Shown piece by piece: positions 57,079-57,647 of a stretch of DNA of 64,000 nucleotides (the stretch's first letter is position 1; every line of letters starts with the position of its first letter). A program made the translations under genes and the position numbers. Location: NCBI RefSeq assembly GCF_003790525.1, contig NZ_CP033635.1; one strand, 5' to 3'. The notes under the pieces were generated by a model that ran no database searches, had not been told where the DNA came from, and saw only the letters and a program-made list of their open reading frames with translations. Origin of the DNA: Escherichia coli (lineage in GTDB: Bacteria; Pseudomonadota; Gammaproteobacteria; Enterobacterales; Enterobacteriaceae).

Positions 57079-57647
57079 GTCGATCCCCTGACAAGGAAAT
57101 GTGAACCATGGACATCAACGCGTCATAAATGTTTACGCAAGTGCACAATGCACCCTTTCCACTATCAACAAGGAGGAGCAGAAACTGTGTAAATCGTACA
57201 ATGGTAAGACTTATCAAAAATACAGGTTAATTTTGGTATTTAAACCTTTTTTACTTGTTAGTATGATACAAAGGCTTTCAAAAAAGCTGGGAAATTCAAC
57301 AACTCTTGGAAATTATGGACTTTGTCCCGCGGCTTTAATCTGACGGCCGCGTTCCTTTTTTGACTCAATTATTGACCCCTTCTCTACGCAACTTCAGTTC
57401 CCACCACCAACTTTGCGGCAGTTTCATAGGATGAATGTCTAAAAGAATAATGGTGACCGATAAGAAAACGACTGAATAACTGCACATTTTCGCTCGAAAG
57501 CTTCCTGTCAGATCCATAGCGGATCAAGTGCTGAATGTCACAGTATCGAACAGAAAACAGTGACGATCTAACCCTTCAAGAATATTCTACGATTGTTCTG
57601 TTTAGGAAAAGCAAGGCGGGAAGTCAGGAGATAAGTCATTGATAAAG

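Follow-up and report, generated by a model that had tools for sequence, protein, structure and literature searches.

A probable composite of yodB cassette tail, small RNA gene and Rho-terminated serU trailer between yodB and serU in Escherichia coli

What occupies the DNA between yodB and the tRNA gene serU in E. coli? In the window analysed here (a 64,000-nucleotide stretch of contig NZ_CP033635.1), an ORF list and a tRNA call place this gap at 57079-57647, directly after the yodB stop codon, which ends at 57078. The gap measures exactly 569 bp, and yodB and serU converge on it. The corresponding gap of K-12 MG1655 (NC_000913.3 2042899-2043467, window positions being converted to MG1655 positions by adding 1,985,820) is also 569 bp long and has the same layout. 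An initial annotation, which gave a length of 570 bp, was thus right in describing a convergent and unannotated region, and neither RefSeq K-12 nor strain EC974 has an annotated feature in it. E. coli K-12 is the best-annotated bacterial genome, yet the small RNA described below has no gene name or RefSeq feature and so far appears only in supplementary tables, as rows labelled 'orphan', 'yodB.serU.IGR' and 'serU.3UTR.AS'.

We consider it likely that the gap is a composite of three parts (Table 1). A 122-bp tail of an accessory yodB cassette would form the first part. The second would be a small RNA gene that is read from an inferred sigma-70-type promoter and stops at an intrinsic terminator at 57361, where a 3' end has been mapped. 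The third would be a serU trailer, in which RNA polymerase seems to read ~240 nt beyond the mature serU end before Rho stops it, as published bicyclomycin (BCM) data indicate. The gap is made of functional and historical elements and is not empty DNA.

Table 1. Features of the yodB-serU region, in window coordinates
Feature	Position	Strand	Basis or remark
yodB cassette tail (yodB 3' flank)	57079-57200	+	Missing together with yodB from ~42% of E. coli and from E. albertii
Complete small RNA transcription unit	57205-57365	+	Both ends homologous to a lambdoid-prophage unit
Predicted sigma-70 promoter (TTTAAA, 17-bp spacer, TATGAT)	57239-57267	+	Consensus match, family conservation
Small RNA body, ~89 nt	57269-57362	+	Covariance model, family alignment, mapped 3' end
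5' hairpin of small RNA	~57273-57290	+	Predicted fold
Single-stranded middle of small RNA	~57291-57316	+	Predicted fold
Small hairpin (GGAC/GUCC)	57317-57327	+	Predicted fold
Terminator hairpin (GC)	57328-57351	+	Sequence
U-run, six U	57356-57361	+	Sequence
serU 3' trailer	57370-57647	-	Rho-terminated; flank part of phage identity block
serU, tRNA-Ser(CGA)	57648-57737	-	tRNA prediction
serU 3'-terminal 62 nt (tRNA 29-90, anticodon stem 5' arm to CCA)	57648-57709	-	Phage alignment

The first of these parts is defined by its distribution. Megablast matched the gap in 5421 of 5426 complete E. coli genomes, 3064 of which have it at full length, whereas ~2300 genomes match gap positions 123-569 only and lack yodB. 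A yodB-to-serU gap as initially described therefore exists in the 3064 genomes and not in the yodB-less ones. The latter have a zinT-serU spacer of 669 bp, whose common part is gap positions 123-569; in place of window 56206-57200, they carry 222 bp of unrelated sequence with the zinT terminator hairpin, which meets window sequence at ~57201. E. albertii has this yodB-less layout. Because 57079-57200 is missing together with yodB, it is part of an accessory yodB cassette with which it travels, and 57201-57647 is the older spacer. The accessory state is a cassette of ~995 bp (56206-57200) made of the zinT-yodB spacer, yodB and 122 bp, for which the alternative state is the 222-bp sequence, and variable sites at 57201-57223 are linked to the yodB+ and yodB- haplotypes. 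Elsewhere in this neighbourhood, a sub-threshold Rfam match to naRNA4 (REP-like) on both strands between msrQ and zinT (55297-55362) is probably a REP/BIME element. In E. coli UTME-3 (L004), an IS3-family element and prophage tail genes break the gap ~40 bp beyond position 109.

Outside E. coli, we fetched 80 loci using MtfA similarity as an anchor. The serU-mtfA pairing is kept in 58 MtfA-anchored loci (five of them E. coli), and among these anchored loci, gap sequence outside E. coli was found only in E. albertii, as two pieces: 57201-57250, and about 124-125 bp adjoining serU at 85% identity. It is absent from 78 other MtfA-fetched loci, in ~50 of which serU was recognised beside mtfA. Lack of conservation beyond E. 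coli, together with lack of any transcription or translation signal, had been named in the initial annotation as grounds for abandoning its ideas about the region; conservation beyond the species is indeed minimal (partial, and limited to E. albertii), but transcription signals exist on both strands. Four loci of cryptic Escherichia clades and E. whittamii (L007-L010) have an MFS transporter (shiA-like) and AMP nucleosidase (amn) 3' of serU; this amn/shiA-like pair stands in place of zinT/yodB in a rearranged neighbourhood that lacks the gap sequence.

The second part of the gap, the small RNA unit, is present in 5412 of the 5426 E. coli genomes. Its promoter-like site matches the consensus at 9 of 12 positions, which by itself is not above chance, and the predicted transcription start lies at ~57273-57275. 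In the predicted fold, the RNA of ~89 nt begins with a 5' hairpin, continues through an unpaired middle into a second, small hairpin and closes with the terminator and its six U, the usual architecture of an Hfq-binding base-pairing RNA. Folded singly, the core RNA is not significantly structured (z = -1.4), and structural support comes from the family alignment described below. Among seven diverse E. coli, variable sites number 2 in 124 positions from promoter to terminator, 5 in 58 downstream and 8 in 38 upstream; with only these 7 genomes, the near-invariance of the promoter-to-terminator stretch is just mildly below the downstream variability. E. albertii keeps the -35 region and lacks the small RNA body. 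The initial view that the gap can be 'neither promoter nor leader' does not hold: a promoter-like site in it is conserved across an RNA family, and half of the gap is transcribed as a serU trailer.

The small RNA contains an 18-nt tandem near-repeat (57277-57312; TTCAAAAAAGCTGGGAAA / TTCAACAACTCTTGGAAA, 78% identity), which may account for the greater length of the core RNA and for its different middle relative to the phage relatives. We set aside the idea of a 108-bp insertion bounded by CCTTTTTT repeats: what E. albertii is missing is just the body, its promoter region being retained, and a search for terminal inverted repeats was negative. In strain PC-NDM34 (L095), an IS1 element lies immediately upstream of the small RNA unit.

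Published transcript-end maps place a terminus where this unit should stop. Term-seq maps an 'orphan' 3' end to 2043181(+) (window 57361), with exactly the sequence of the small RNA terminator; this end is present in the LB OD 2.0 sheet and absent from the LB OD 0.4 sheet (Adams et al., 2021, supplement 1; PMC7815308). The TRS dataset gives a plus-strand terminus at 2043176-86, labelled yodB.serU.IGR, with scores of 1 and 0.97, a hairpin of -14.9 kcal/mol and a U-tract of 6 (PMC10687069). The small RNA thus has a discrete Rho-independent 3' end, formed by a hairpin and six U and recovered by both Term-seq and TRS.

Published RIL-seq tables connect the same RNA to Hfq. In the data of Melamed (2016) as tabulated by Bar et al. 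(2021, Table S1; PMC8175672), yodB.serU.IGR accounts for 39 chimeric fragments during exponential growth and for 33 in stationary phase. Its SIC score, which is S minus 1/k, takes the values 0 (k = 1) and 0.5 (k = 2), so it is always the second member of a chimera, a position typical of sRNAs. The classifier of the same study assigns it sRNA scores of 0.010 and 0.046, under the authors' threshold of 0.1, because it has few partners (PMC8175672). A 2025 preprint lists the small RNA as 'serU.3UTR.AS' (2043121-2043183(+)), always as RNA2, in chimeras with ompF (50, p 7e-22), fes (37, odds ratio 62, p 1e-45), GcvB (110, p 9e-19) and ileV-alaV (45) (PMC12262471). For one library, the published Hfq RIL-seq tables also give ~9,400 other chimeric fragments. 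Through these enriched chimeras and its RNA2 position, the small RNA is seen to associate physically with Hfq. A full-text search, which included the RNA's own sequence, found no name for it in the text of papers. The suggestion in the initial annotation that the gap might hold an unannotated small RNA is thus borne out by mapped 3' ends and Hfq chimeras in published supplements and by a structure common to phage homologues.

Since the small RNA appears on Hfq ligated to ompF, fes and GcvB RNAs (published RIL-seq), we infer that it is most likely a trans-acting base-pairing regulator or a GcvB-targeted sponge, both functions being putative. The best predicted duplex with ompF (K-12 986857-986838) reaches -16.0 kcal/mol and that with a G/U-rich segment of GcvB (K-12 2942771-2942787) -14.3 kcal/mol, each no better than shuffled sequences, and predicted pairing with fes is likewise not above shuffles. 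A structured RNA that occurs in nearly all E. coli and has prophage relatives is a concrete candidate regulator for ompF, fes and GcvB.

Further plus-strand RNA signals lie antisense to serU (window 57594-57753, K-12 2043414-2043573). In RIL-seq, 'serU.3UTR.AS' occurs antisense to serU as RNA1 with 111 chimeras to MalH (malG 3'UTR), and TRS has a plus-strand terminus at 2043553-61, in the region antisense to serU. They could stem from a long mtfA leader whose start lies in the gap, or be an artefact caused by the great abundance of the tRNA.

The small RNA unit has relatives in lambdoid phages, for which we took the unit of phage vB_EcoS-683R6 as the type copy. By blastn, this unit matches the core unit at 81% over 42 nt in the promoter region and at 87% over 46 nt in the 3' module, and the middle differs. 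Copies of the phage-type unit are also present in prophage SerU-LTIIb, ~300-370 E. coli genomes and 47 IMG/VR contigs; in 5 of 5 loci examined the unit lies between Q antiterminator/tRNA genes and holin, on the strand opposite the late genes. The -35 element and the -10 geometry (TTTAAACC, 17 bp, TAnnAT) are kept in all seven family members while the transcribed middle diverges, and the core copy has this geometry both in the family alignment and in the blastn match over the promoter region.

Structure is conserved along with promoter geometry. RNAalifold on six members recovers the 5' hairpin, the small hairpin and the terminator, with compensatory changes in 5 of 17 pairs, located in helices 1 and 3. 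The core copy scores 78.5 bits (E ~5e-15) against a covariance model that gives 96-111 bits to five of the six full-length phage/prophage copies retrieved and 56.7 bits to the remaining one, a degenerate copy without the U-run; the core copy thus has the three-hairpin structure and the 3' module. In a family alignment of 55 hits, which comprise 16 distinct sequences, pairing holds in 97% of cells and 6 pairs are compensatory, counts that are biased towards structure since the alignment was fitted to the covariance model; none of 500 shuffles reaches the family pairing, and slid controls pair at ~40%.

The core copy is located between zinT/yodB and serU. It does not share the position of the phage-type units between Q/tRNA genes and holin, antisense to late genes, as no phage genes are nearby, and its single-stranded middle differs from theirs. 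Searched with the covariance model, other genera of Enterobacteriaceae have no copy beside serU, and Rfam returned only tRNAs and sub-threshold noise for the window region and the phage units. The core small RNA is a diverged, chromosomally fixed member of a lambdoid Q/tRNA-to-lysis RNA family. We rejected kinship with IpeX of DLP12, whose quuD-nmpC-essD region gave no sequence match, and, at the blastn level, with the Pas sRNAs, as EPEC E2348/69, the strain in which the Pas sRNAs were defined, has the core copy only and no other match to the phage unit. Some phage copies (L087 8384-8451; L098 ~1573-1625) are followed by a weaker second module in tandem after the first terminator, which consists of GGACTTTGTCC, another hairpin and a T-run (covariance model E = 0.054). 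Weak STnc100-like Rfam hits (E ~0.2, below threshold) adjoin the phage-type unit on the opposite strand (L098 1629-1825 (-); L113 2735-2931 (-)), in a region described for Pas/STnc100 RNAs of Stx-type phages.

The third part of the gap is transcribed in the other direction. Adams et al. (2021, supplement 2; PMC7815308) report a Rho termination region with a 3' end at 2043225(-), which is window 57405, where upstream/downstream reads are 7705/24 without and 9053/1099 with bicyclomycin (Rho score 39, p 2e-241); read-through thus rises from 24 to 1099 downstream reads when Rho is inhibited. A minus-strand TRS terminus at 2043204-19 lacks a U-tract (U-tract of 2) (PMC10687069). The Rho-dependent 3' ends of the trailer lie at 57405 and ~57391, within a zone at 57384-57405. 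As is typical of a Rho terminator, the upstream RNA is C-rich and G-poor (13 C versus 4 G in the first 40 nt after the tRNA end) and unstructured (z = +1.5, less structured than shuffled sequences), and there is no hairpin with a U-tract. These data are read most simply as serU transcription that continues for ~240 nt beyond the mature tRNA end until Rho stops it; because of their abundance, the reads at the Rho site presumably come from the serU promoter. The trailer accounts for the existence of half the gap and for the fact that phages copy that half.

These copies are found in phages ev099, mEp332 and PhiR70_1, which carry window 57370-57709 at 96% identity. The identity block comprises 278 bp of flank and serU positions 29-90, the last 62 nt of the gene. 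Both ev099 and mEp332 follow the window up to 57709 and then continue into phage DNA like the tail-fibre arm of SerU-LTIIb, whose record (KU052038) annotates a 62-nt serU fragment at the tail-fibre-arm junction. Left of the block are an AraC-like gene and transposase genes and, in ev099, also an integrase, which is ~2.1 kb from the block with the AraC-like gene and transposase genes in between; the mEp332 record has no annotated integrase. In ev099 and mEp332, the copied 3' part of the tRNA thus starts in the anticodon stem-loop, and the block would be an attP whose identity begins in the anticodon stem.

The left edge of the block, 57370, is 14-35 bp beyond the Rho-dependent 3' ends (57384-57405), so the 3' part of the serU transcription unit is present in these phages in full. 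Lambdoid phages entering serU at its anticodon stem-loop would thus supply both the last 62 nt of the gene and the trailer that follows it. In a lysogen, the intact serU would read into the phage copy of the trailer and keep its native 3' end and terminator, and prophage genes would be shielded from tRNA read-through. We counted 5976 copies of the block in 5404 E. coli genomes, so ~570 genomes have a second copy. In E. coli CEC08123 (L096/L097), the serU side of the gap is bordered by a lambdoid prophage that carries espJ and tccP; the integrase end of this prophage adjoins yccA, which points to a large rearrangement that involved prophages at two attachment sites.

Two pieces with lambdoid counterparts make up almost all of the older spacer: the RNA unit (57205-57365) and, from 57370 on, the block. 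In SerU-LTIIb, the phage-type unit points the same way with respect to serU as the core copy does. An old serU prophage reduced by deletions would yield the present layout of the spacer, and the flank in common with E. albertii counts against a recent event. Membership in the lambdoid RNA family suggests that the small RNA was domesticated from an old prophage at serU. A fuller version, which we hold to be less likely than not, is as follows: an antisense late-region RNA of a lambdoid serU prophage would have become an E. coli-specific core Hfq sRNA with a new seed that links the ompF, fes/ybdZ and GcvB networks, and the serU trailer with its Rho terminator would be a portable phage cassette that rebuilds the tRNA unit and insulates the prophage. 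The locus would then be a clear example of phage DNA at a tRNA integration hotspot giving rise to a small RNA specific to one species.

Other explanations of the gap have to be weighed. A small protein, another suggestion of the initial annotation, seems very improbable. The ORFs in the gap are all at most 80 aa long, with ORFs of 20-80 aa present on both strands, and a 7-codon ORF (57315-57338, MDFVPRL) lies within the small RNA, but comparison with E. albertii and the family members revealed no conserved ORF, and the idea fails on this account. The 80-aa ORF begins in the yodB-linked part, which is missing in 42% of genomes; the 35-aa ORF has ATA in place of its ATG in E. albertii; the 7-codon ORF has lost its ATG in 2 of 7 family members, although the hairpins it overlaps are kept; the minus-strand ORFs sit in an RNA that Rho terminates, which implies that this RNA is not translated; and RefSeq annotates no gene in the gap. 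It is also unlikely, if less far-fetched, that the plus-strand RNA regulates nothing by itself and is merely the 3' end of yodB mRNA or a terminator fragment of this mRNA that is stable because Hfq protects it. With no strong terminator between the yodB stop and the hairpin at 57328-57361, yodB transcripts probably do end at this hairpin in yodB+ strains, and the 5' end of the small RNA is a prediction, its partners are few, its sRNA score is low and its pairing predictions are not significant. Yet the unit and its promoter-like site are intact in the ~2300 genomes without yodB, phage homologues, which are not preceded by yodB, share the conserved promoter elements and 5' hairpin, and the RNA always occupies the second, sRNA-like position in chimeras.

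Two further explanations concern origin. The initial annotation raised the possibility of a decayed island attachment scar, and like its small RNA idea this is partly supported: serU-integrating lambdoid phages do carry the 278 bp and the 62-nt serU block, and the small RNA has prophage homologues, but the gap contains no integrase fragment, no second att core or serU fragment and no notable repeats. If the scar is taken to be functionless, so that the 447 bp beside serU would be leftovers of a decayed lambdoid prophage with incidental transcription, we find it improbable. Both halves have lambdoid homologues, the SerU-LTIIb unit is oriented to serU like the core copy, E. albertii has lost the RNA body and 78 other loci lack the sequence altogether, all of which would suit such decay; retention in 5412 of 5426 E. 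coli genomes with an almost invariant promoter-to-terminator stretch, Hfq association with specific, statistically enriched partners and the strong Rho-dependent termination that the trailer gives to a highly expressed tRNA gene would not. The transfer may also have gone in the opposite direction, with phages capturing the 278-bp trailer from the host by aberrant excision in the style of lambda gal/bio; the chromosome would then be the donor, the trailer would have no adaptive role and nothing in the gap would be phage-derived. This is a possibility to be taken seriously, although we do not favour it. E. albertii has the serU-proximal 125 bp (85% identity) and the left end of the segment, which suggest vertical descent of the flank, and the phage copies, at 96% identity to E. 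coli, are inside the range of E. coli's own diversity. Against capture, three separately deposited phages (four records, two of which are one ev099 genome) have the identical left boundary at 57370, E. coli genomes contain ~570 extra copies of the block, the left edge is just past the Rho zone, as expected if a whole functional unit were carried, and the separate homology of the small RNA unit is left unaddressed.

Under the composite reading, which we prefer, the small RNA is new and unnamed, associated with Hfq and related to prophage units, and the trailer and block follow known principles. Prophage-derived Hfq-binding sRNAs of E. coli include IpeX (DLP12), DicF (Qin) and Pas (EPEC) (PMC8550237; bioRxiv 10.64898/2026.05.13.724894). 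Like these, the serU-side small RNA is short, has an intrinsic terminator with a U-tail, is found on Hfq and has homologues in the lambdoid late region; unlike these, it belongs to the E. coli core genome, outside any recognisable prophage. It also resembles IpeX, which is reported to lower OmpC/OmpF, in having ompF as a partner.

The trailer has a counterpart in the tyrT operon, the classical E. coli case of a transcribed trailer (rtT) with a Rho-dependent terminator. In serU as in tyrT, transcription goes on for roughly two hundred nucleotides after the mature 3' end, and Rho, not a hairpin terminator, brings it to a halt. The serU trailer differs in having neither the 178-bp repeats nor a Tpr-like ORF and in being carried by integrating phages. 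Phage HP1, for its part, has an attP/attB identity block of 182 bp over the 3' part of a tRNA operon, and an anticodon-loop class of integrases was reportedly defined by Williams in 2002. As in HP1 and this class, the serU identity runs from the anticodon stem (position 29) through the 3' end, and integration therefore rebuilds the tRNA gene. In contrast to them, the identity extends 278 bp into non-coding flank without a further tRNA, and this extension is the Rho-terminated trailer. Also comparable are SerU-LTIIb (KU052038) and the espJ/tccP prophage of the CP-933U/Sp14 type, which share the serU attachment site; the late region of SerU-LTIIb, moreover, contains a paralogue of the small RNA unit. 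Both of these are complete or partial prophages. At serU in the window there is no prophage, and only the RNA unit and the trailer are present.

On the far side of serU, a Term-seq 3' end (LB OD 0.4) at window ~57901 (+), K-12 2043721, is 70 nt into the mtfA coding sequence and adjoins a CTGCCCTTCCCTGGCAG hairpin; it may reflect premature termination in mtfA. Just downstream of mtfA, two yodB-less strains (L003 4766-6447; L095 4218-4779) have an integrase pseudogene after asnT. In CFS3313, the yersiniabactin gene ybtS of the High Pathogenicity Island also follows asnT, a known island site.
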